This document shows positions 7,367 to 37,107 of a DNA stretch of 41,688 bases, piece by piece. The DNA comes from a virus. Below the pieces are notes generated by a model, which was not told the origin of the DNA, made no database searches, and saw only the letters and a program-made list of their open reading frames with translations. The stretch is from UHGV virus genome UHGV-0112358. One strand, 5' to 3'. A program made the translations under genes and the position numbers. How positions within the stretch are numbered: the stretch's first letter is position 1; every line of letters starts with the position of its first letter.

Positions 7367-8026
7367 TTAACTAAATGTCTCTTCAGGCCACTGGCTGGCG
7401 ATAACTTTCCCTACTACGGAACAGCTATCATTGCATGGGATCATTGGATATTGCGGGTTTAGTGGTTGTAGGAACACCTGACCGCTATCCCTGATCAGTT
7501 TCTTGAAGGTAAACTCGTCACCACCAAGTCTGGCTATGCAGAAATCACCTGGCTCAACAGCCTGCTCAGGGTCAACGAGAATTAACATCCCGTCAGGAAA
7601 GCTTGGCTTGGATCCTGTTGGTGCGGTCATGGAATTACCTTCAACTTCAAGCCAAAACGCACAATCACTGGCTTTTTTGGTTGTGCTGACCCATCTCTCC
7701 GCATCGCCTTTGGTAAAGGTTCTAAGCTCAGGCGAGAACATCCCGGCCTGAACATGAGAAAAAACAGGGTACTCATATTGTTTTTTAACGGGGGCAGATG
7801 AGTATTCGCCAACAGGTGAAAATGTACCGTCGTGGTTGAATGAGACGTTATCAATACCAAGGTATTTAAACACCACACCAATCTCGTCAAGAGATGGATG
7901 ACGAGATCCGCGCAACCAGTGACCAATTCCACCCTGCGTCATACCAAGCTCTTCAGCTAACTTCTCTTGAGTTATGCCGAGCTCTTTCATTCTGGATCTA
8001 GCCAGTTCATACCATTTCATTTTCAT
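7367..8026 (-). CDS. cI: CI-type prophage repressor (HTH N-terminus, lambda-like S24 C-terminal domain)
   Basis: C-terminal half near-identical to recalled lambda CI ([15 protein letters not shown]...GNSM...ASQWPEETF); N-terminal HTH differs; start MKMKW at 8026, track ORF extends to 8101. Confidence 0.9.
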
Positions 8027-8137
8027 ACCCTTATTATTACGCTCTGTACTAAAACCATCCATGCACAAGATGTATTTTTTGTTTGCATTCCAAAAGTACA
8101 TATCGTATTATTGTTTCATGGTTACTATGGAGGGCAT
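8027..8137. promoter_or_regulatory. OR region: pR promoter and candidate operators
   Basis: pR -35 TTGCAT (8083-8088), 17-nt spacer, -10 TATTAT (8106-8111); operator-like dyads ATTACGCTCTGTACT (8036-8050) and AGTACATATCGTATT (8095-8109). Confidence 0.45.
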
Positions 8138-13917: not shown

Positions 13918-14102
13918 ACGCCACAATTCAAACGATACCAGAGCTTCTTATCCAGACACGAGGCAATCAGACCGAAGTGGCGAGGATGCTTTCCTGTGCA
14001 AGAGGAACAGTGCTCAAGTACAACCGAGACAGCAAAGGCGAGCGTCACGTAATAGTTAACGGCGTCCTGATGGTCAAACAAGGCAAGAGGGGAAGACGAT
14101 GA
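13914..14102 (+). CDS. ninH: NinH
   Basis: ...YGNQTEVARMLSCARGTVLKYNRD... resembles recalled lambda NinH. Confidence 0.65.
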   Translation: MNATIQTIPELLIQTRGNQTEVARMLSCARGTVLKYNRDSKGERHVIVNGVLMVKQGKRGRR

Positions 14103-14722
14103 GACTCGAAAGCGTAGCTAAATTTCATTCGCCAAAAAGCCCGATGATGAGCGACTCACCACGGGCTACGGCTTCTGACTCTCTTTCCGGTACTGATGTG
14201 ATGGCTGCTATGGGGATGGCGCAATCACAAGCCGGATTCGGAATGGCTGCATTCTGTGGTAAGCACGAACTCAGCCAGAACGACAAACAAAAGGCTATCA
14301 ACTATCTGATGCAATTTGCACACAAGGTATCGGGGAAATACCGTGGCGTGGCAAAGCTTGAAGGAAATACTAAGGCAAAGGTACTGCAAGTGCTCGCAAC
14401 ATTCGCTTATGCGGATTATTGCCGTAGTGCCGCGACGCCGGGCGCAAGATGCAGAGATTGCCACGGTACAGGCCGTGCGGTTGATATAGCCAAAACGGAG
14501 CAGTGGGGGAGAGTTGTTGAGAAAGAGTGCGGAAGATGCAAAGGTGTCGGCTATTCAAGAATGCCAGCAAGCGCCGCATATCGCGCTGTAACGATGCTAA
14601 TCCCAAACCTTACTCAACCCACCTGGTCACGCACTGTTAAGCCGCTGTATGACGCTCTGGTGGTGCAATGCCACAAAGAAGAGTCAATTGCAGACAACAT
14701 TTTGAATGCGGTCACACGTTAG
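14099..14722 (+). CDS. Q: late-gene antiterminator Q
   Basis: 207 aa, MRLESVAKFHSPKSPMMSDSP... with zinc-finger CRDCHGTG...CGRCKG; near-identical to recalled lambda Q. Confidence 0.9.
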   Translation: MRLESVAKFHSPKSPMMSDSPRATASDSLSGTDVMAAMGMAQSQAGFGMAAFCGKHELSQNDKQKAINYLMQFAHKVSGKYRGVAKLEGNTKAKVLQVLATFAYADYCRSAATPGARCRDCHGTGRAVDIAKTEQWGRVVEKECGRCKGVGYSRMPASAAYRAVTMLIPNLTQPTWSRTVKPLYDALVVQCHKEESIADNILNAVTR

Positions 14723-27080: not shown

Positions 27081-27592
27081 ATGATTTCACTGTCGATAAT
27101 ATTATCGATGTACTTGCTGGCTACATAGAACCTATCGCTGGTAAATGCCTGCAGGCTCAGGCTAACCGTGTACCAATGCCCAAGGATCAGTTCTGCATCC
27201 TGACCCCTTTGCGATTCACCAGACTATCCACGACGAGAGAGCTTAAGCAAGATACCGGCTCTCCGGACACAAGCGCCATGGGATATACGGAAGTCCGCCA
27301 GGCTGATATTCAGGTAGATATCTATGGTCAGGGGGCTGGGGATAGAGCTATTGCACTGGAAACAACATTCACCAGTGGATATGGCTACGACATCATCAAG
27401 GCTATTGATGCACGTCTTGCACCGCTTTACTCATCTCCTGTCATTCAGGCGCCGATGATCAACGCCGAGAGTCAGTGGCAGGAGCGTTACACGTTAACTC
27501 TTTCCCTGCAAGCACACATCACCGTGTCGTTCCAGCAGGACTATTTCGACAAAGCAGAAATTTCAACTGAACAGGTGGATAACCGCCCATGA
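27077..27592 (+). CDS. putative tail-associated protein
   Basis: ATG overlaps upstream stop; track ORF starts 27032. Confidence 0.45.
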   Translation: MNDFTVDNIIDVLAGYIEPIAGKCLQAQANRVPMPKDQFCILTPLRFTRLSTTRELKQDTGSPDTSAMGYTEVRQADIQVDIYGQGAGDRAIALETTFTSGYGYDIIKAIDARLAPLYSSPVIQAPMINAESQWQERYTLTLSLQAHITVSFQQDYFDKAEISTEQVDNRP

Positions 27593-29079
27593 GCACAATC
27601 CCTTTATCTGTAGATTTTAATATCACGCCCAATGTCGTTACGCCTGCCGGTTCTGCGGTTGATGCTAACGGCCTGATGTTGACCGATAACGAGCTTATCC
27701 CGGTTGGCGCGGTACAATCTTATTACTCCTCATCTGATGTATCAGCTTTGATGGGGAGTGAATCGAAAGAATTCCTCGCCGCACAACAGTATTTTAACGG
27801 CTACGAAAACTCATCCGTTATTCCTGGTGAACTGCTGATGTATCGTATTGTTACTTCACCAGTGGCTGGGTATCTTCTGTCCGGCAACCTGAAAGGTGTT
27901 GCCCTGGCAACACTGAAAGCGATTCCAGCAGGAACAATCACCCTTTCCATTGACGGTGAGTCGACTACCAGCACATCAATTGATTTGTCCACAGCCACAA
28001 GTTTTAGTGACATTGCGTCCAAGTTGCAGGTTGGAATTGGTGCAAGCAAGGTGGTGGTTGAATGGTTGCCAATCGCTAACCGATTCATCATTCGCTCTGC
28101 CACTACTGGCGCAGAGAGTGAAGTGTCTTATGCTTCTGCTGGCGCTCTGGCTACCGGGTTGTTACTGACGCAGGATTCCGCAGCGATTGTATCACCGGGT
28201 TCTGATGCGGTAACGCTGACAGACACGATGAACAACATCATCAACGTCAACCAGAACTGGATCCTGTTTAACTCGCTGGTCGAACTGACCGATGACCAGA
28301 AAACAGAATTGTGCGCATGGGCAAGCAGCAGTAAAAACCGGTTTGGATATGTTGTTCACGACACCACCTCAGCAGGAACGGTAGCAAATAATGCCAATTG
28401 CTTTGTGCAGAAAGTGGTTGTGGCAAATGGCTACGAGAACATTTTTCCGGTGTACGGAACATACCTGTATAGCGTTACAGCACTGGCATATGCTGCATCC
28501 GTGGATTTTGCACGCACCAATGGGCGTATCTCGTTCAAGTTCCGTGGATTTTCAGGGTTAGCACCCAACGTCAGAGATCTGGCGACCGCTCAGGCACTGA
28601 AGTCAAACGGTTACAACTTCTACGGATCATACAGCCTGAACAAAACAATGGCGCAGTACGCATCTGATGGTGCCATTACTGGAAAGTTTGTATGGCTGGA
28701 CAGTTTTATTAATCAGGTATGGATTAATGCCAATCTGGTTAGTGCTTTTGCCAACCTGTTCACCAATAACCAGTCTTACCCGTTCAATGAGACAGGATAC
28801 GGCGCAGTTTCTGCTGCTGTTATTGATGTTGCTGAACAGGCTCTCAATTTCGGGGCTATTCAGCGCGGCGTGAAACTTGATAATGCGCAAACCAGAATTG
28901 TGAATAACACAGTTGGAAAAGATATCTCATCGACGCTGTATTCACAGGGCTGGTTCCTGTACATCCCGACACAGTCAGGCTCTGCACGCATTGAGCGCGA
29001 CCTGAAAGGTGTCATTTTTTATTATGTCGATGGGCAACTTATTCAGTCCATCACGATGTCCTCAACCGCGATTTTATAA
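27589..29079 (+). CDS. contractile tail sheath protein (Mu gpL-like)
   Basis: 496 aa, size and position before tube gene. Confidence 0.65.
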   Translation: MSTIPLSVDFNITPNVVTPAGSAVDANGLMLTDNELIPVGAVQSYYSSSDVSALMGSESKEFLAAQQYFNGYENSSVIPGELLMYRIVTSPVAGYLLSGNLKGVALATLKAIPAGTITLSIDGESTTSTSIDLSTATSFSDIASKLQVGIGASKVVVEWLPIANRFIIRSATTGAESEVSYASAGALATGLLLTQDSAAIVSPGSDAVTLTDTMNNIINVNQNWILFNSLVELTDDQKTELCAWASSSKNRFGYVVHDTTSAGTVANNANCFVQKVVVANGYENIFPVYGTYLYSVTALAYAASVDFARTNGRISFKFRGFSGLAPNVRDLATAQALKSNGYNFYGSYSLNKTMAQYASDGAITGKFVWLDSFINQVWINANLVSAFANLFTNNQSYPFNETGYGAVSAAVIDVAEQALNFGAIQRGVKLDNAQTRIVNNTVGKDISSTLYSQGWFLYIPTQSGSARIERDLKGVIFYYVDGQLIQSITMSSTAIL

Positions 29080-29090
29080 GGGAATAAATC

Positions 29091-29525
29091 ATGCCTATCG
29101 ATATTACCTCGGCAAACAGTAAGCTGCGAATCGTCGTACCCGCTTACTACCCTGGCGGTTTTGATGTTGACGACTACGCAGCTGATAACATGTTTGAAAC
29201 TGGTGCGTTACAGAACAAAGAAGACATGATGTCAGCGGACGGTAAATACCATGCTGGTTTTATCTTTAACCCGACAGAGTTCACCATCAACCTGATGCCC
29301 ACATCCAATGCTGGCTCGCTGATTGATGACTGGTATGCAGCGGAGAGAACCGCAATTTCAGCGTTTCAGTGTAATGCGGTGCTTACAGTTCCGGCTCTCG
29401 GCGCGAAGTGGAATTTTGTGAACGGGGTTCTTTATACATGGACTCCAACCCCTCCGGGTCGGCGCGTACTGCAACCACGCCCGGCAGTATTTCACTTTGA
29501 GTCTGTAACACGGAGCACTATCTGA
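29091..29525 (+). CDS. tail tube protein
   Basis: 144 aa directly after sheath, SD TAAGGGA. Confidence 0.6.
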   Translation: MPIDITSANSKLRIVVPAYYPGGFDVDDYAADNMFETGALQNKEDMMSADGKYHAGFIFNPTEFTINLMPTSNAGSLIDDWYAAERTAISAFQCNAVLTVPALGAKWNFVNGVLYTWTPTPPGRRVLQPRPAVFHFESVTRSTI

Positions 29526-29932: not shown

Positions 29933-30147
29933 AGTACCCGTTCATGGAGGAGGAGACTCTTCCGGCAAAACTCGTTAGCCCCGTAAACGTCACACCATCA
30001 ATGAACGCCATTATCTGTTCAGGAAAAGCCACTTATACCGATTTGCAGGAAAGGTTATCTGTTCGTGATATGTATAACCTTCTGGAAATTATCTCGGTGG
30101 AATCATTTAACAAGCGGGTCTGGAATAAACATCAGGAGCAGCGATGA
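29929..30147 (+). CDS. tail chaperone -1 frameshift extension (T-like)
   Basis: Frame is -1 relative to chaperone and open from slippery site 29908-29914; no independent RBS. Confidence 0.55.
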   Translation: MKYPFMEEETLPAKLVSPVNVTPSMNAIICSGKATYTDLQERLSVRDMYNLLEIISVESFNKRVWNKHQEQR

Positions 30148-31919
30148 TTATCAATGAGTTGGCCTACAAGGTCACAATTAAGGCCGATGAATTCCTGAAT
30201 GGAAAACGGAAAGTAAAGCAGGAAGCACAAGACCTTAAAAACGAAATAGAGAGATCTTCATCTGCGATAGAAAGGTCAACAACCTCCTCGATGTCCAAAA
30301 CGGCTAAGGAGACCGACAAAGCTGCTGTTGCAATGAAAGGGTTGACTGCTTCATTTAATGGTTTTTTGGGGCTTTCGACACGCTTTGTGGCTGTTGGCGG
30401 TGTGTTGACTGCCGTAGCCATTGGCATTCATCGTGCATTTGAAAGTACTTCGGAGTCAATTGTAAGAGCCAGTAATATGGGGAGAATGCTTGGAACAAGC
30501 GCCAGTAACGTTCTTGGTACTCAGTATGGATTCTCCCGAATTGGTCAGAACGGCGGCGCGTTCCTTGGGGCACAGATGAGCGCCAGGATGGCGCTTGCCA
30601 ATATAGAAGACCCAACAATTTTCGGCGGACTTACACCGGAGGCTCAGAATTTACTAACAACTGGAGCGAGAACAGGCATTGATATTAGTAAGCTTGGAGG
30701 TAAATCAGAAGATGCTCTGGCGGAATTTCAGAAATATGGGAAGAACCATAACGAGAAACAGTTAATGCAAGTGCTTTCTGCTTTTGGTTATGACCCTAAT
30801 CTTGCCGGGGATATTAAAAGCGGAAAAGCTGTGCAGATGGTATCTGAGGAAGAAAAACGATGGCAGATGACCAAAGAGCAGGAAGAAGCACAGCGCAACA
30901 TTCTTGCTACGACTAAAGCCCTTGACTCGCAATTTGCTCAGGTTAAACAAGAATTAATGGCTACATTTGGCCCTGAAGTGCTTAAAGCTGAACAGGAGTT
31001 TTTAGAGTGGCTGAAAAACAACAAGGGTGACATTGTTGGGTTCTTCAGGAACCTGAGTACAGGTATTGATGGTTTTGTTAAAGCCGTTGGTGGCGCTGGA
31101 AACGCATTGGGCATTCTTGCTGCCATGGCTCTTCTTAGCGGCAAGGGGTTAGGAAGCAAGCTGGGATTAATCGGTGCTGTTGGTATTTTTGGGCAGATGG
31201 TACAAGACCAGTATAAAGATGTTCCTGATGAGATGCGGCCATTCGCATTTCAGCAGCATTGGCTTGAAAGGCTCATTGGGCTGGATTATGACGATCCAAA
31301 TAAAGAGATTCCTCCTAACAAAAATGGTGTCAACAGGCCTGACAGAAACAATAACCCATTAAATCTTAAAGCTACTGGAAACAGAAGAAGAGACAAAGAC
31401 GGATTTGCTCAATACTTCGACCCAGAAGAGGGTTGGGAGGCCGCCAGGAATCAACTGACTCTATACTACAAAAGAGATAAGCTTGATACGTTGCAAGGAA
31501 TAATAAGCAAGTGGGCACCATCCTCAGAAAACAACACAAAGGCGTATATTGACCAGGTTTCTAAGTCTATGGGCGTTGGTGCCAATGATAAGCTAAACCT
31601 CTCAGATCCAGAGGTTATGGCAAAACTTAGCGCCTATATGGCTAGGCATGAAGGTTATCCAGATTGGAAGCGGGGTCTTGATTATGGTAACCCAACGAAA
31701 AATAGCAATGCCGCTTACTACCAAACTCAGCAAAGATTGGCTAATGGATCTGCAAATCAATCCTATACCCAAAGCGTTGTTAACAATTACAACAGCCAGC
31801 ACATAGGAGAGGTAAAGGTAATTGCCAAAACGGATCAATCCTCAAAACTAACCGAAGGATTTAAGGAGTTGAATCGCAGATCATCAGTAAATCAGGCATT
31901 TTCAAGTGCAGTGCCTTAG
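30144..31919 (+). CDS. tail tape measure protein
   Basis: 591 aa with hydrophobic and Gly-rich segments, follows chaperone pair. Confidence 0.65.
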   Translation: MIINELAYKVTIKADEFLNGKRKVKQEAQDLKNEIERSSSAIERSTTSSMSKTAKETDKAAVAMKGLTASFNGFLGLSTRFVAVGGVLTAVAIGIHRAFESTSESIVRASNMGRMLGTSASNVLGTQYGFSRIGQNGGAFLGAQMSARMALANIEDPTIFGGLTPEAQNLLTTGARTGIDISKLGGKSEDALAEFQKYGKNHNEKQLMQVLSAFGYDPNLAGDIKSGKAVQMVSEEEKRWQMTKEQEEAQRNILATTKALDSQFAQVKQELMATFGPEVLKAEQEFLEWLKNNKGDIVGFFRNLSTGIDGFVKAVGGAGNALGILAAMALLSGKGLGSKLGLIGAVGIFGQMVQDQYKDVPDEMRPFAFQQHWLERLIGLDYDDPNKEIPPNKNGVNRPDRNNNPLNLKATGNRRRDKDGFAQYFDPEEGWEAARNQLTLYYKRDKLDTLQGIISKWAPSSENNTKAYIDQVSKSMGVGANDKLNLSDPEVMAKLSAYMARHEGYPDWKRGLDYGNPTKNSNAAYYQTQQRLANGSANQSYTQSVVNNYNSQHIGEVKVIAKTDQSSKLTEGFKELNRRSSVNQAFSSAVP

Positions 31920-31927
31920 CAGATTTG

Positions 31928-32386
31928 CTATTGACTAATTTCCCGCATGAATGCAATTGTTTTTGCCATTTTCTCAGAGTGATCAATTGTCTCAACGAGA
32001 AATTTTCGCGCGGGAGATTGCTCATTCTCGCCTCGGAATGTGGCGTTAATGTTTTGCATTGCTGCATTTTTCCACATGCTTACTTCTTCTATGGATTGCG
32101 ATAATGATGCTGAAGATGCAGCGTCAAAGCATATACCATACGATGAATCTCGTATATCTGACGGTGACTTGCCAATAGCACTAAGTTGATTTCCATACTT
32201 TTTTACCATGTCGTTAGCCATATCCTGACAAACTTCATCAATGCTTTTGCCCATGCCTGCAACATAAGGAGAAGCATCTTTTATTAAAGACATCATTTTT
32301 TCCTTATCTTTGTCGGATGCAGCATAAGCTGCGAGTGATAGAAGAACGGAAGAAAATATTGCTATTGTGAAAAATCTGGATTTCAT
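31928..32386 (-). CDS. secreted/periplasmic protein of unknown function (moron)
   Basis: Signal peptide MKSRFFTIAIFSSVLLSLAAYAASD; SD AGGGGAAAGA; opposite strand to tail genes. Confidence 0.6.
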   Translation of the reverse strand: MKSRFFTIAIFSSVLLSLAAYAASDKDKEKMMSLIKDASPYVAGMGKSIDEVCQDMANDMVKKYGNQLSAIGKSPSDIRDSSYGICFDAASSASLSQSIEEVSMWKNAAMQNINATFRGENEQSPARKFLVETIDHSEKMAKTIAFMREISQ

Positions 32387-32502
32387 TCTTTCCCCTTGTA
32401 ACGTTTCCTATGTTTGTATCCGTTAACTTAAGCAAAAGCACGCAACACTCGGTTTTACGCAGGATACCAGATGATACTGTGTAGTTGGAGTAGTGCGGTT
32501 GC

Positions 32503-32594
32503 AATGCAAGCATTTTGCTTTTGTTTTATGCTTGCTTGTATGTGGGTACAGTGCATATAATGCAAGCATATATCACAGCAAAGGTGCTTGCATT
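32503..32594. promoter_or_regulatory. operator array (4 copies of AATGCAAGCAT) over a consensus promoter
   Basis: Copies at 32503-32514, 32528-32535, 32559-32570, 32585-32594 in alternating orientation; -35 TTGCTT (32532-32537), -10 TATAAT (32556-32561). Confidence 0.5.
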
Positions 32595-33587
32595 ATGACT
32601 GAAAAGAAAAGTGGTGAAGGGAAAGCTAAGGGCGGAATCGCTCGCGCAAAGTCGCTGACTAAAGAGCAGCGTTCTGAAATAGCAAAGAAAGCAGCGGCTG
32701 CAAGATGGAAGGATAAACCATTAATTGCTACGCATAAGGGATCGTTCCAGCATGAATTCGGGATTGATGTTGAGTGCTATGTGTTAAATGATGATAACAA
32801 AACTGCCGTTATTAGCCAGAGAGGCATGGGAGAAGCGATTGGTCTTGGCGAAGGTGGCAGCAGGTTGCCAAAGTTTATTCAGGGGAAAACTATTTCTCAG
32901 TATATCGGGCATGAATTAAGGGCAAAACTTGAAAATCCTCTTATTTTTCAATACAAACAGGTGGGCACGAACACACCAGCTAACCCTGTAATACATGGCT
33001 ACGATGTAACAATCTTAATTGATTTATGTCGAGCAATCTCTAACGCTAAAGCTGAAGGTAAGTTGCTTTCTAGTCAGGAAGGGATTGCTAAGCAAGCCAG
33101 GATAATTATTGATGCATCAGCCAAGGCGGGAATTCAGGGGCTTGTTTATGCTTTGGCAGGGTATGACAGAACAAAAGAAGAAGTAATTCAAGCATATAAG
33201 CGATATGTTGCTGAAGAGGCTCGTGAGTATGAAAGAGAGTTCACCCCTGAACTTTATGAGCATTGGTATCGTCTGTATGGTATAGACAAACCAGTTAGAG
33301 GGCGACCGTGGGCGTTTAAATATCTTACGATAGATCACATTTACTACCCATTAGCCAGAAGTGAAGGAAAGGTATTTAATTTAGCAAAAACGTCAAAAGA
33401 AGAGAAAGGCAGCAAAAACGATAAAATACACCAGTTTTTATCAGAGGTTGGAGTTAAAGCTCTTAGAACCCAAATAGGTAAGGTTACTGGTATTGCAATG
33501 GTTTCTGATACTCGAGAAGAGTATGAGAAATACATAGATGAAAAGGTTATTGGACAAAGAACCATCGACTTAAAAGATAAAGAATAA
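32595..33587 (+). CDS. KGG-motif / P63C-like protein of unknown function
   Basis: ATG 32595 after SD; N-terminus GKAKGGIARAKSLTKEQRSEIAKKAAAARW; track ORF starts upstream at 32493. Confidence 0.55.
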   Translation: MTEKKSGEGKAKGGIARAKSLTKEQRSEIAKKAAAARWKDKPLIATHKGSFQHEFGIDVECYVLNDDNKTAVISQRGMGEAIGLGEGGSRLPKFIQGKTISQYIGHELRAKLENPLIFQYKQVGTNTPANPVIHGYDVTILIDLCRAISNAKAEGKLLSSQEGIAKQARIIIDASAKAGIQGLVYALAGYDRTKEEVIQAYKRYVAEEAREYEREFTPELYEHWYRLYGIDKPVRGRPWAFKYLTIDHIYYPLARSEGKVFNLAKTSKEEKGSKNDKIHQFLSEVGVKALRTQIGKVTGIAMVSDTREEYEKYIDEKVIGQRTIDLKDKE

Positions 33588-33616
33588 GAAAAACCCACCG
33601 TCAGGTGGGTTTTTTG
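33588..33616. terminator. bidirectional terminator between convergent genes
   Basis: A-run, ACCCACC-gtca-GGTGGGT, T-run. Confidence 0.6.
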
Positions 33617-33921
33617 TTTAGCAGTTCTCTTAACTTTTCGTTTTGCTCTCTGAACTTTTCCTGTATTTCTTTTTGCATGGCGATAACCTGGGCTTGAAGT
33701 TGAACTAGCGCATCAACATTTAGCGGAACCGAGACGCTGTTGATTTTGTCTGCTATTTCCCCAAGAGTATTTTCTGCATTCAAGGCATCTTCCAGTATCT
33801 GCACAATCTCTGAGTTCATTGATCTGCCGTTACGTTTAGCTCGTTCAGCTATAGCATCTCGCATTCCGTCAGGAAAACGGAGGTTGAACTTGTCGTAGTC
33901 TTTTACTTGTTTTTCGGCCAT
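33601..33921 (-). CDS. mnt: Mnt/Arc-type ribbon-helix-helix repressor
   Basis: KFNLRFPDGMRDAIAERAKRNGRSMNSEIVQ RHH motif; divergent from arc-ant pair; track ORF extends to 33960. Confidence 0.6.
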   Translation of the reverse strand: MAEKQVKDYDKFNLRFPDGMRDAIAERAKRNGRSMNSEIVQILEDALNAENTLGEIADKINSVSVPLNVDALVQLQAQVIAMQKEIQEKFREQNEKLRELLNKKPT

Positions 33922-33939
33922 TGCAAATCTCTCAAAAAA

Positions 33940-34012
33940 ACCATGGTGCCATATTGCCATACGATTTCAATGGTGGCATTATGGCCTTCATGGCGTCACT
34001 TTGGCACCAAAT
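33940..34012. promoter_or_regulatory. divergent promoter/operator region of immI-like switch
   Basis: Inverted half-sites GGTGCCA / TGGCACC repeated between the mnt-like and arc-like starts. Confidence 0.4.
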
Positions 34013-34027
34013 AAAGGAGATTAGATA

Positions 34028-34201
34028 ATGCAAGATACACTTTTCACTGAGCGCAAAAATATCAAACTCAACCTTCGCCTTCCATCACGGCTGAATGAAG
34101 ACCTTCGCCGCCTGGCGGAAATGGACTGTATATCTCTGAACTCTGCAATTGTTCGTTTGCTGGCAAAAGGTGTTAGGGAAGAGGTGGCGAATGGTCGCTA
34201 A
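34028..34201 (+). CDS. arc: Arc-like ribbon-helix-helix repressor (57 aa)
   Basis: [36 protein letters not shown] motif; SD AAAGGAG; below track cutoff. Confidence 0.6.
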
Positions 34202-35207
34202 AAACAGCGAAGCCCCAATGGCTGCAACCATTGAGGCTTCTAAATTACCAGTTAACTACGAGAAAACTGATATGAATAGTATAGCAATTTTAGAAGCAGT
34301 GAACACCTCTTACGTACCCTTCAACGGTCAGCAAATTATCACCGCCATGGCTGCAGGAGTTGCATATGTTGCGATGAAGCCAATCGTTGAAAACCTCGGA
34401 ATGAGCTGGGGTACTCAGCAACAAAAACTTATGAAACAACTAGATAAGTTCAACTGTATTCATATGAATATGGTTGCTGCTGATGGGAAGCTTCGTAAGC
34501 TACTCTGCCTTCCTTTGAAGAAGTTAAATGGATGGCTGTTCAGCATCAACCCTGAGAAAGTTCGTGCTGACATCCGCGATAAACTGATTCAGTACCAGGA
34601 AGAATGCTTTACTGTGCTGCATGACTACTGGACTAAAGGCCATGTGGTTAACCCGCGCAAAGCTAAAAAGGCGTTGCCGGGCAAAATCACCACTGAACAG
34701 CAGGAAGCCATTAAACAACTTGTCATGAGTCGCGGTCAGTCTCTGCCAAAAGAAAAACAGGCGAAGGCGATGATCACCATGTGGTCGTCACTGAAATCCC
34801 ATTTTGGATGTTCGTACAAAGAAATCAGTGAGGAGCAGTTTACCGAAGCACTGTCACTTGCAGCTCGAGTTCCACTTGAAGGTGAGTTCATTAGCAAACA
34901 AGAGAAGAGCACCAACGAGCTTTCCGCAAAAGAAGCAAACAGCCTTGTATGGTTATGGGATTATGCCAACCGCTCACAGGCATTATTCCGCGAACTGTAT
35001 CCGGCATTAAAACAAATTCAATCGAACTATTCCGGCAGATGCTACGACTACGGTCATGAGTTCTCGTATGTTATCGGAACGGCGAGAGACGTTTTAATCA
35101 ACCACACACGAGATGTTGATATCAATGAGCCAGACGGACCAACAAATCTTTCTGCATGGATAAGGCTTAAGAATAAAGAATTACCGCCTTCTGTTCATCT
35201 GTATTAA
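34191..35207 (+). CDS. ant: antirepressor (Ant-like, AntA N-terminal domain)
   Basis: [23 protein letters not shown]... resembles recalled P22 Ant; ATG 34191 with SD GAGGTGG overlapping arc end. Confidence 0.65.
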
Positions 35208-35291
35208 TGACGCATCTGGTGGTGAAAAAAAACCGCCAGTGTGCAGCTGGCGGCCTATGTCACACCCTTACTACCACATAAGGAATGCCTA

Positions 35292-36020
35292 ATGACTTTT
35301 AAGAATGTAGCAAACATCGGATCCGTTGTCACGGATAAAACCATTGATAGCCAGTACCTGTTAGAGATGGTCAATCATGCTCGTAGACAGTGCGGGGAAA
35401 AAGAAGTCCGCAATAACGACTTTATTGCACGCATTAAGGATGAACTTGAAGGTGAGCACTACGAAATTTTCGTAGTTCAAAAATCAAACAAGACAACTTC
35501 TGAAAAAGTTGTTATGTCAATTAAGCAAGCCCTTCGAGTGGCTGCTCGTGAATCTAAAGCTGTTCGCCGCTCACTTGTAGACCAACTTGAAAGTATGCAA
35601 GAAGCGCACATTAAAAGCGGTAAATCGTCTAGTGGACTTGTTGAGTATCGCCAGGCGCGAACATTGAAAATGACGGTTGAAGCTGTTACCAATCTGTTCG
35701 ATTTGATGCCAAATCTTGCGCCGGAAGCAAAGCAGACTGCGGCAGCAAGCATAATCAACCCGATCGTTGGTTTTAATGCAATACCTCTTCCAGCAATAGA
35801 AGAGCATTACTACTCAGCAGGGGAGGTTGCAGAGCAGCTTGGAGTAACGGCCAACAAGATTGGTCGCATTGCTAACGCAAACAACCTCAAAACTGAGCAG
35901 TACGGGAAGTTCTTCCTGGATAAATCTGCGCATTCCAGCAAACAGGTGGAAGCATTCCGCTACAATGCGGAAGGTGTTAAAGCACTACAACACCTGGTTC
36001 ATGGGAGTAATGTTGCATAA
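35292..36020 (+). CDS. hypothetical DNA-binding protein (possible antirepressor-like)
   Basis: ATG 35292 with SD AAGGA; HTH-like segment near C-terminus; track ORF starts 35241. Confidence 0.45.
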   Translation: MTFKNVANIGSVVTDKTIDSQYLLEMVNHARRQCGEKEVRNNDFIARIKDELEGEHYEIFVVQKSNKTTSEKVVMSIKQALRVAARESKAVRRSLVDQLESMQEAHIKSGKSSSGLVEYRQARTLKMTVEAVTNLFDLMPNLAPEAKQTAAASIINPIVGFNAIPLPAIEEHYYSAGEVAEQLGVTANKIGRIANANNLKTEQYGKFFLDKSAHSSKQVEAFRYNAEGVKALQHLVHGSNVA

Positions 36021-36241
36021 TGGCAAAGAAAAAATATGGCATTATGCCGCCAAGAATCAAAGGAAGAGCCAGGGTAAAAGGCGATGCTGGGAGATATCAC
36101 ATTCTTGGTGTTTTGTGGCATGAGAGAGCTTTAATTTTAAGCAGACCTCATGGGTACATTGAAAAGGTATCTATAGATAGAATTGAGATTCTTCCCCTTA
36201 CTCCTGAAGAAGAAGAAACGTACGGACTTTTTGATAACTAG
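36020..36241 (+). CDS. hypothetical protein (73 aa)
   Basis: ATG overlaps upstream stop; basic N-terminus. Confidence 0.4.
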   Translation: MAKKKYGIMPPRIKGRARVKGDAGRYHILGVLWHERALILSRPHGYIEKVSIDRIEILPLTPEEEETYGLFDN

Positions 36242-36252
36242 CCAATTCACTA

Positions 36253-36276
36253 AACCCAGCTTCGACTGGGTTTTTG
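36253..36276 (+). terminator. rho-independent terminator closing accessory island
   Basis: CCCAG-cttcga-CTGGG followed by TTTTTG. Confidence 0.55.
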
Positions 36277-36291
36277 TTTAATGGAGAGTAG

Positions 36292-37107
36292 ATGAGCATA
36301 ATCGATTTAAACACAGCAGACATATTCAATGCTATCGGTGGTGGCTCTCCGCTTTCGATCATCGACAGCGTTCTGCATCCCCAGTATGTGATTCGTGACA
36401 GGGAAACTGGCGAGGTTGCTCTTGAGTTCAGTGGTATGGCATCCGTACAGCCAAGCGGAAGGGCGCAAATAACAAATGCTCCGGTGGAGAAAGGGAAATA
36501 CCAGTCCATCAACAAAGTTAAAGAACCAGCCAGAGTAAGATGCGCAATCATCGTAAATGGTCTTACTGGTTTTTCCGGCAATATCCCGAATATTTTCGAT
36601 CTCACATTCACAAGCCAGAACAGCACGCTGAACACAATCAAAACGATGCTGTCCTCTGCAAAAACATACGATATTGAAACGCCAAAGGAAACTCTGGAGA
36701 GTTTCGACCTTGTTGACCACTATTACGAAGTTAACTCTCAAAAAGGGGTGACTCTTCTGACGGTTTATCTTGATTTTCAGGAGGTCATTCAGCAAATGGA
36801 GGTTATCCTCTCTGGATCTCAGTCAGAACAGAAGCCAACGGATAACAATAAGTCACAGGGAGATGTAGGAGTTGATCCGCAAATAACCAATGGCGGAGCC
36901 AGGGAATCTACTGTCGATGAGCTAAGTAAATCATGGTCATCACTGAAGTCATCTGTTGGCGACATCACTGGAAAAATCTCCGACACAATCAAGACTGAAT
37001 TTCAGAGTGCTCTTGATACGGTGTCCAAACCAATACTCGAAGTTACAAACAGCGCAACAAAAAAAGCGGCAGATATTGCAAAAAATATAGTTAAGGCGAG
37101 CACATGA
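36292..37107 (+). CDS. putative baseplate/tail protein
   Basis: 271-aa ORF with SD GGAGAG resuming tail gene block. Confidence 0.5.
   Translation: MSIIDLNTADIFNAIGGGSPLSIIDSVLHPQYVIRDRETGEVALEFSGMASVQPSGRAQITNAPVEKGKYQSINKVKEPARVRCAIIVNGLTGFSGNIPNIFDLTFTSQNSTLNTIKTMLSSAKTYDIETPKETLESFDLVDHYYEVNSQKGVTLLTVYLDFQEVIQQMEVILSGSQSEQKPTDNNKSQGDVGVDPQITNGGARESTVDELSKSWSSLKSSVGDITGKISDTIKTEFQSALDTVSKPILEVTNSATKKAADIAKNIVKAST

Follow-up and report, generated by a model that had tools for sequence, protein, structure and literature searches.

A probable P22-type secondary immunity region with added morons inside the contractile-tail operon of a lambdoid prophage of Escherichia coli

What are seven non-structural genes doing in the middle of a contractile-tail operon? 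In the virus genome UHGV-0112358 (41,688 nucleotides (nt), analysed over its whole length and called the window here), about 4.4 kb separate the tape-measure gene, which ends at 31919, from the first baseplate gene, a Dit-like gene that starts at 36292. The window is a lambdoid prophage of E. coli that joins a lambda/P22-like early region, encoding N, Cro, CII, O and a DnaC-like loader besides the CI repressor, to an E217/Gofduovirus-type contractile tail, and its tail genes have no match above about 68% nucleotide identity in deposited phage genomes. A sequence-only reading of this DNA, made without database searches, had noted that the tail operon is interrupted here, and all of the open reading frames (ORFs) that it listed do exist at their positions. 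Our answer, to which we give a probability of about 80%, is that the region is a P22-type secondary immunity region (immI, also called the 'ant moron') with add-on morons, set in a late operon that depends on Q.

To judge by its predicted genes and their order, the core of the region is a complete P22-type immI module (Table 1). The sequence-only reading had described a divergent switch resembling mnt, arc and ant, and domain matches, PHROG families and identity to P22 now identify its parts as a Mnt-like repressor, an Arc-like repressor, the antirepressor Ant and a sar-like antisense RNA. Among PDB sequences, the Mnt-like protein matches Mnt (1mnt, 1.4e-07) and Arc (3e-05); it shares 27 of 69 residues (39%) with P22 Mnt and has a RefSeq homologue of 106 amino acids (aa). 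Its gene is divergent from the arc-like gene across a spacer of 106 bp, in which consensus matches, and nothing but consensus matches, place two candidate face-to-face promoters (rightward 33954-33982, leftward 34007-33978). The Arc-like protein also matches PHROG 228 and 582, both 'Arc-like repressor', and has no match among PDB sequences; an AAGGAG stands 8 nt 5' of its ATG. Ant has 213 of 300 residues identical to P22 Ant (71%) and the same first 20 residues, and it too falls into an anti-repressor PHROG.

The sar-like RNA fills the spacer between arc and ant exactly, in the same place and on the same strand as in P22. Its extended -10 (TGcTATACT at 34286-34278, minus strand) lies inside ant, where nucleotides 1-42 of the gene, the site of the annotated Psar in the P22 record, are identical to P22 at 41 of 42 positions. 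The 14-bp stem of its terminator differs from that of P22 on both sides while pairing is kept in both phages, and the RNA is predicted to fold into two stem-loops (z = -6.8). Judged by synteny this RNA is likely real, though its score is below the Rfam threshold.

Is this core an insertion of recent date? About twenty complete E. coli genomes hold a prophage with this tail module, and we compared twelve of them in detail. The sequence-only reading had taken the region for an inserted accessory island and a hotspot for morons or immunity-related genes, and had proposed a comparison of synteny to see if the slot varies between related prophages. It does vary: there are at least nine kinds of slot content in the twelve E. 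coli relatives, with flanking tail genes that are 92-99% identical, and none of the twelve has an empty slot. Beside the tape-measure gene, relatives carry orf152, an unrelated secreted protein of 152 aa, an unrelated secreted protein of 157 aa, a 77-aa protein, or nothing. Next come P63C, a Panacea-domain protein with a partner, DUF2513, other small genes, or none. The repressor slot is filled by an Arc-family protein of 80-106 aa, a LexA-family protein of 269 aa or a helix-turn-helix (HTH) protein of 213 aa, ant may be full length, truncated or absent, and the 242-aa and 73-aa genes each come and go independently. Two of the twelve prophages (SC407 and TB354) lack immI wholly.

Through this turnover the triplet of repressor, small Arc and Ant persists. 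It stands at this position in ten of the twelve E. coli relatives (in two of these ant is truncated or split), it stands there too in the Edwardsiella phages Edno5 and GF-2, whose tail genes have 65-68% nucleotide identity, and it was also found in Yersinia, Citrobacter and other relatives. Because it is kept at the exact position even in GF-2 and Edno5, the core is not a recent insert. The repressor/Arc/Ant core is a feature of the lineage, and the cargo around it turns over. Two findings had been named in advance as speaking against an accessory region, namely the same genes conserved as tail components in related phages and confident structural-protein homology, and neither appeared in the relatives or in the profile and structure searches. 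No slot ORF has structural-protein homology in Pfam, PHROG or structural-neighbour searches. Since the genes are not conserved tail parts, the accessory reading stands.

Two sets of replacements among the relatives deserve mention in their own right. The Mnt-like repressor is replaced by the LexA-family protein of 269 aa at the compared loci L006 (6446-7255) and L013 (6389-7198) and by the HTH protein of 213 aa at L010 (4768-5409), which would place Ant under different, possibly SOS-cleavable, control. The P63C position is occupied by the Panacea-domain protein and a 139-aa partner, a probable toxin-antitoxin pair, at L002 (5809-6676), L006 (5566-6433) and L013 (5509-6376).

The edges of the region are unequal. 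On the right the edge is sharp, and all twelve E. coli relatives are back at 97-99% identity from 36252-36254, on the terminator hairpin. On the left, nine of the twelve lose nucleotide similarity at about 30225, roughly 80 bp into the tape-measure gene, and in three of the twelve similarity persists to 31908 or beyond. Because nine relatives diverge so early in the gene, the body of the tape-measure gene is itself a swapped allele. Among the non-identical relatives compared, identity over its C-terminal 250 aa ranges from 20 to 77%, and the allele lengths are 564, 591, 604 and 605 aa; the protein also matches PHROGs for lytic tail protein and tail injection transglycosylase. The Dit-like baseplate gene is kept in all relatives compared. 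The boundaries first proposed, the end of the tape-measure gene on the left and the terminator on the right, are therefore borne out on the right, whereas the left edge is less clean. Likewise, both hairpins that had been taken to bound the island exist, but the one between the convergent P63C and mnt-like genes is internal and not a boundary. Within the window, G+C content fails to delimit the region, being 40-47% in it and equally in the downstream baseplate genes.

How would such a region work? Gene identities, gene order, regulatory elements and their conservation are taken here as found, and we infer all binding events and phenotypes. By homology to P22, in a lysogen the Mnt-like repressor made from the leftward promoter would shut the rightward promoter, no Ant would be made and CI would silence the prophage. 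When the genome enters a cell that is free of Mnt, the rightward promoter would fire and Arc and Ant would be made briefly, and Ant, again by homology to P22, would bind and inactivate CI-type repressors. Arc would then close its own promoter, and the sar-like RNA would pair with the ribosome-binding site of ant and block its translation. During lytic growth, polymerase modified by Q would pass the internal terminators to reach the baseplate genes, and the antisense RNAs would keep ant, and probably the 242-aa gene too, untranslated on the read-through message. The 242-aa protein would act as a second antirepressor-like DNA-binding effector in the same operon, with a sar-like antisense RNA of its own. 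Left of the core there would be two independent morons, P63C, which is likely self-repressing, and orf152, the best candidate for an exclusion factor.

Table 1. Features of the region and of the surrounding prophage, in window coordinates.
Feature	Coordinates	Strand	Basis or remark
CI repressor, HTH (HTH_3) and S24 peptidase (Peptidase_S24)	7367-8101	-	domain matches
Q antiterminator	14099-14722		followed by holin, Rz lysis gene, terminase, portal
DUF3383 sheath	27589-29079	+	in the long plus-strand late operon
E217_Gp32-type tube	29091-29525	+	in the late operon
Tape-measure/lytic tail protein, 591 aa (left flank)	30144-31919	+	PHROG 873 (1.2e-291)
orf152, predicted secreted (periplasmic) helical-bundle protein, 152 aa	31928-32386	-	signal-peptide-like N-terminus, MKSRFFTIAIFSSVLLSLAAYA followed by AS
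P63C promoter/operator cassette	32503-32596	+	four ATGCAAGCA-type half-sites forming two inverted-repeat pairs
P63C-domain protein, 330 aa	32595-33587	+	Pfam PF10546, 35.8 bits (cut-off 26.1); PHROG 2384, 3.5e-103
Bidirectional intrinsic terminator between convergent P63C and mnt-like genes	33589-33614	both	11-bp stem flanked by A-run and T-run
Mnt-like ribbon-helix-helix repressor, 106 aa from the ATG at 33921	33601-33921	-	Pfam Arc, 2.1e-20
Divergent promoter/operator region with repeated ATGGTGCCAT-type sites	33943-34009		repeat families, inverted repeats
Arc-like ribbon-helix-helix repressor, 57 aa, first gene of the ant operon	34028-34201	+	Pfam Arc, 22.1 bits (cut-off 20.4), marginal
sar-like antisense RNA over arc-ant spacer and ant ribosome-binding site	34206-34272	-	Rfam sar (RF00262)
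Ant antirepressor, 311 aa	34272-35207	+	P22_AR_N 1.6e-44; P22_AR_C 8e-30
Candidate antisense RNA, about 75 nt	35222-35297	-	complementary to ribosome-binding site and ATG of the 242-aa gene
Predicted antirepressor-like DNA-binding protein, 242 aa	35292-36020	+	PHROG 1726 'anti-repressor', 8.2e-100
73-aa protein	36020-36241	+	PHROG 4977; start overlaps the 242-aa stop by one base
Intrinsic terminator, right mosaic boundary	36252-36281 (hairpin 36252-36273)	+	8-bp stem and T-run
Dit-like first baseplate gene (right flank)	36292-37107	+	PHROG 1830; Pfam Dit_like weak, below cut-off

The sequence-only reading could assign no function to the 242-aa, 73-aa, 152-aa and P63C proteins. For the 73-aa protein we too have no assignment, but the 242-aa protein can be placed, through its PHROG and a MerR-like C-terminus. 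Its family counts more than 2100 clusters. An AlphaFold2 model of the protein (mean predicted local distance difference test score 72) has three parts, an N-terminal beta-alpha-alpha-beta-beta-alpha domain, long central helices, and a C-terminal helix-turn-helix with a beta hairpin, and this last domain matches the fold of solved MerR/RacA/Par DNA-binding domains, a MerR-like winged helix. Across 54 loci in other genera, a full-length homologue is usually found about 1 kb past an mnt/arc pair, on its downstream side, and the N- and C-terminal halves also occur apart, with other partners. We give about even odds to this protein being a second antirepressor-like effector of the ant operon.

The 242-aa gene also has an antisense promoter inside its first codons (35332-35304, minus strand; GTGACA, 17 nt, TGcTACATT), and ahead of the gene there is a hairpin at 35230-35256 that is preceded by an A-run and lacks a following T-run, and would therefore terminate the minus strand only. 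Promoter and hairpin together predict an RNA of about 75 nt over the ribosome-binding site and the start codon. The -35, the extended -10 (TGnTAnAnT) and the spacing of 17 nt do not vary among 14 loci from different genera, and this invariance coexists with variable N-terminal residues of the encoded protein, which are modelled as disordered. The stem of the antisense terminator has changed on both sides with pairing kept at four of its nine pairs. A covariance model of the RNA matched 31 times across 79 sources and never in an unrelated locus; 14 of the 31 are training sequences, which match by construction, and the other 17 are the real test. In the matches the antisense RNA lies at the 5' end of a 242-aa-like gene or of whatever gene stands in its place, which in Citrobacter (L019) is one with a Rha domain; this placement was checked in the full-length loci, L017 and L019 and inferred from coordinates in the loci with partial matches. 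No Rfam family matched over this RNA at E values up to 1. The 242-aa gene is thus predicted to have its own conserved, sar-like antisense RNA. The loci with this candidate RNA are L001, L004, L006, L007, L010, L017, L019, L026-L036, L038-L041, L043, L047-L050, L059, L062 and L065; in relatives where the gene at this position differs in its N-terminal part, the RNA overlaps the ribosome-binding site and start codon of that gene.

Turning to the left half, an operator array had been noted ahead of the P63C-like gene, and we confirm four half-sites arranged as two inverted repeats of the form ATGCAAGCA-N14-16-TGCTTGCAT. A -35-like TTGCTT (32532-32537) is part of the distal repeat (32503-32536). 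The proximal repeat (32557-32596) begins within the -10 TATAAT at 32556-32561, which runs on directly into GCAAGCA; the Shine-Dalgarno sequence falls in the spacer of this repeat, and the repeat stops one base short of the ATG of P63C. No exact copy of the 9-mer half-site occurs elsewhere in the window. P63C genes of Burkholderia cenocepacia and Azotobacter have the cassette in front of them as well, there with spacers and flanking sequences that are unrelated. When viral contigs were scanned for exact copies of the motif, at least 120 stretches had one, a scan that gauges how often the motif marks a P63C gene and not what share of P63C genes has the motif. Among the 120 stretches listed, 103 encode a P63C homologue (24-100% identity to the window protein), and 102 have the motif at a distance of -10 to +120 nt from the P63C start as inferred. 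They yield 81 distinct upstream sequences, 64 of which hold two or more repeat pairs. The spacers are mostly 15 and 16 nt long (111 of 168 pairs), and a 20-nt spacer (22 pairs) mainly reflects an overlapping alternative half-site, as in the distal repeat of the window. A TAnnAT -10 typically overlaps arm 1 in the upstream sequences inspected.

Since the P63C gene is the only constant neighbour of the motif, autoregulation is the simplest reading, and we think it fairly likely that P63C represses its own promoter through the embedded double inverted repeat. From this arrangement, the gene is probably a self-contained, autoregulated moron. The repeat is exact (window 32503-32596; L080, L081, L084-L203) even where the P63C protein is only 24-34% identical to that of the window. 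Two other uses of the repeats were considered. An operator for CI is not supported, as there is no exact 9-mer outside the P63C promoter and no cluster of sites in the spacer between CI and cro. A hairpin in the mRNA formed by the proximal repeat is unlikely because the -10 overlaps arm 1, which should put the transcription start within or past that arm; the distal pair lies upstream of the promoter, and both arms conserve their sequence, not merely their pairing. The P63C protein itself has a conserved to invariant basic N-terminal motif, GG-ARA...ARW, and belongs to a family of at least 2766 clusters, whose listed homologues all carry PF10546. We found no functional literature on it, and mentions of a 'P63C domain' were judged off-topic by title and abstract.

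The gene next to the tape-measure gene, orf152, had been described as an oppositely oriented gene for a secreted protein, and both its minus strand and its signal-peptide-like N-terminus agree with that. The family has two invariant cysteines, and a confident structure model of orf152 is a bundle of five main helices for which we found no informative structural neighbour. It is a small family of 29 clusters, its members with a source organism name are all from Enterobacterales, and it was not found in deposited phage genomes. In every context examined orf152 is convergent with the adjacent tape-measure gene, with a 4-bp overlap of the 3' ends or a distance within 10 bp, and in one Yersinia prophage its homologue is the sole gene of the slot. 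Edno5 and GF-2 carry small membrane proteins at the orf152 position, and P22 carries sieA. Because unrelated secreted and membrane proteins, and sieA in P22, share this position, an envelope role is suggested, and by that analogy we tentatively put orf152 forward as a candidate superinfection-exclusion protein that would act at the envelope against incoming phage. Two more mutually unrelated families of about 150 aa with signal-peptide-like N-termini occur in the place and orientation of orf152 (L003 4921-5379, L005 4621-5079, L004/L006 4665-5138). The two unrelated secreted proteins come from strains SC407 and KCJ3K291. Recognition by orf152 of the C-terminus of its own tape-measure protein is not supported, as the identities of the two fail to track (r = 0.45 overall); L014 and L015 have identical orf152 proteins and tape-measure C-termini that are only 31% identical.

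The same left half could instead be an anti-phage defence hotspot, made up of orf152, P63C and the cargo that replaces them, and have no part in immunity control. In that case P63C would be an autoregulated single-gene abortive-infection or exclusion factor and orf152 a periplasmic block to DNA entry, and for the right half this remains compatible with the immI reading that we favour. We hold it as possible, on the short side of even. In relatives, the P63C position is taken by a Panacea-domain antitoxin with a small partner (TB354, EC16, EcE.CRE.COL), by DUF2513 or by small genes, and the proteins beside the tape-measure or ejection gene are mostly envelope proteins of unrelated families (three secreted ones in E. 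coli, membrane proteins in Edno5 and GF-2, SieA in P22). P63C itself stands alone in unrelated prophage positions in Burkholderia, Azotobacter and Laribacter, and tight operators embedded in promoters are typical for genes that are harmful when overmade. All of this is argument from position, however. No toxin-like or enzymatic domain was detected in P63C (Pfam, NCBIfam and other searches), and PADLOC gave no match at E 0.01 for orf152, P63C, Arc, Ant or the 73-aa protein. As for known defence systems more widely, PADLOC 2.0 returned only marginal matches over short stretches, for the Mnt-like and 242-aa proteins (E 0.002-0.007), and NCBIfam gave nothing useful.

It is also conceivable, and in our judgement unlikely, that P63C and the 242-aa protein are extra antirepressors or transcription factors directed against the repressors of co-resident prophages, which would make the region a hub of several antirepressors for cross-induction. 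Much of what speaks for this concerns the 242-aa protein, whose PHROG is annotated as anti-repressor, whose shuffled two-domain architecture is like that of the Bro/KilA/Rha/Ant group, whose place is taken by a Rha-domain protein in one Citrobacter relative, and whose homologues in many genera form part of the ant operon, after mnt/arc. According to the Pfam description, P63C takes its name from being the C-terminal module of such antirepressor-type proteins, but it is 60-70% identical between beta- and gamma-proteobacteria, which would be unusual for a protein co-evolving with fast-changing repressors. It also has its own promoter outside the Mnt-controlled operon, and a profile comparison shows no relationship to the 242-aa family (hhalign probability 1.3%). 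Finally, that some of the ORFs are assembly or structural parts of this type of tail, and the region not accessory at all, is very improbable: the region does lie inside the tail cluster and across genera homologues of orf152 show tight linkage to the tape-measure gene, but orf152 is on the opposite strand and predicted to be exported, no structural homology was found, and the pattern of presence and absence in relatives effectively rules out such a role for the slot ORFs.

Some of our results weigh against the P22-type immI region with add-on morons as we have described it. The CI protein of the window has an S24 domain, so that SOS induction would have no need of Ant. The promoter calls between mnt and arc come from consensus scans, in a region that had fewer promoter-like sites than shuffled sequence (6 against 10.7), and the top sigma-70-like site (34001-34029, TTGGCA-17-GATAAT, 10/12) overlaps the arc start codon and would initiate inside arc. 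The Rfam sar match is full length with 28.6 bits and E 0.011, below the gathering score of 43. The case for autoregulation of P63C consists solely of the co-occurrence of motif and gene. With orf152, there is no similarity to SieA or to any known exclusion protein in sequence or fold, no promoter was found, with none at 8/12 consensus matches in the upstream spacer, and specific recognition of the tape-measure protein is weakened because the identities do not track.

In its arrangement the region is already known and largely ordinary, a P22 immI or ant moron now seen in a lambdoid prophage with a myovirus tail. The main interest lies in three by-products, the P63C repeat, the 242-aa antisense RNA and the orf152 family, all of them computational inferences. 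The inverted-repeat motif of 2 x 9 bp offers a way into the P63C family, which is uncharacterised and counts more than 2700 clusters, the second sar-like antisense RNA would extend a textbook regulatory design to another antirepressor-like gene family, and the secreted families beside the tape-measure gene are candidates for new injection-blocking proteins. That all three hold jointly, with P63C binding its own operator as a new factor or exclusion family, orf152 founding an exclusion family and 242-aa-like genes being under an uncurated family of sar-like RNAs, seems to us somewhat doubtful. P63C would in that case be a widespread single-gene cassette with the operator ATGCAAGCAT-N14-16-ATGCTTGCAT, usually present twice, which stays exact while the protein falls to 25-30% identity across Proteobacterial phages. 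If true, P63C would be a new phage family of transcription factors or exclusion proteins with a defined DNA target, orf152 would found a family of periplasmic superinfection-exclusion proteins tied to E217/Gofduovirus-type tape-measure genes, and a family of sar-like RNAs would control 242-aa antirepressor-like genes in many genera of Enterobacterales.

How does the region compare with known systems? Superinfection-exclusion proteins that block DNA entry include SieA of P22, gp15 of HK97, Ltp of the Streptococcus phage TP-J34 and Sp of T4. Like them, orf152 is small and envelope-targeted, and like sieA its gene is on the opposite strand beside the DNA-delivery gene; unlike SieA, gp15, Ltp and Sp, it is predicted to be soluble in the periplasm and not membrane-anchored, and it shares no sequence or fold similarity with them.

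The closest model for the whole is P22. In the P22 record, gene 16 (ejection) is followed 23 bp on by sieA on the minus strand, then by orf59a and mnt on the minus strand, arc, sar on the minus strand, ant, a terminator and the tailspike gene 9. The immI components of the window match these in kind, order and orientation, and they too are followed by a terminator ahead of the next tail gene; within the late operon they come, as in P22, between the DNA-delivery gene and the distal tail genes. It differs in that its virion is that of a contractile-tailed lambdoid phage and not of a podovirus, with tape-measure and Dit-like genes as flanks, in that an unrelated secreted protein takes the position of sieA and P63C that of orf59a, and in having two extra genes (242 aa and 73 aa) after ant. 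Such a region was named 'ant moron' by Villafane et al. 2008 (PMC2629481), and was described there as variable in length and without a role in morphogenesis or lysis, with ten types among sixteen genomes (PMC2629481). The region in the window agrees with that definition, lying inside the late operon among syntenic structural genes and varying in length and content, and its high gene flux among relatives is also like that of P22-like phages.

The same tail module, at 65-75% nucleotide identity, occurs in the Edwardsiella phages GF-2 and Edno5 (Gofduovirus) and in Yersinia and Citrobacter prophages. Between their tape-measure and Dit-like genes, GF-2, Edno5 and some of the prophages encode an Arc-family repressor, a small Arc and Ant, and in the records of related Gofduovirus phages genes at this point are already labelled as Arc-like and Ant. 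In contrast to the window, GF-2, Edno5 and the related prophages have no P63C and carry small membrane proteins as cargo beside the tape-measure gene, GF-2 and Edno5 have neither the 242-aa nor the 73-aa gene, and the N-terminal domains of Ant in this group are Bro-N and ANT.

The block of P63C, mnt, arc and ant is found, with the same P63C operator cassette, in the E. coli Lederbergvirus vB_EcoP-611R6 and in the M15 prophage, where the order is ejection gene, small gene on the minus strand, P63C, mnt-type gene, arc, a 73-aa gene, ant and tailspike. Their 73-aa gene sits between arc and ant and is unrelated to the 73-aa protein of the window, they lack the 242-aa gene, and the tailspike gene follows ant. 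In the P22-like prophage of M15, a gene for a ClpP-family protease lies directly downstream of the Mnt-type repressor gene and is co-oriented with it (L024 5189-5725). The P63C protein of the window is 56% identical to that of 611R6 and 99% identical (328/330) to that of M15. With P63C 99% identical, podovirus-type and myovirus-type lambdoid prophages of E. coli have traded immI almost intact and have much of its sequence in common, which shows that the slot behind the DNA-delivery gene is a landing site for immunity and exclusion genes that is shared across tail morphologies.

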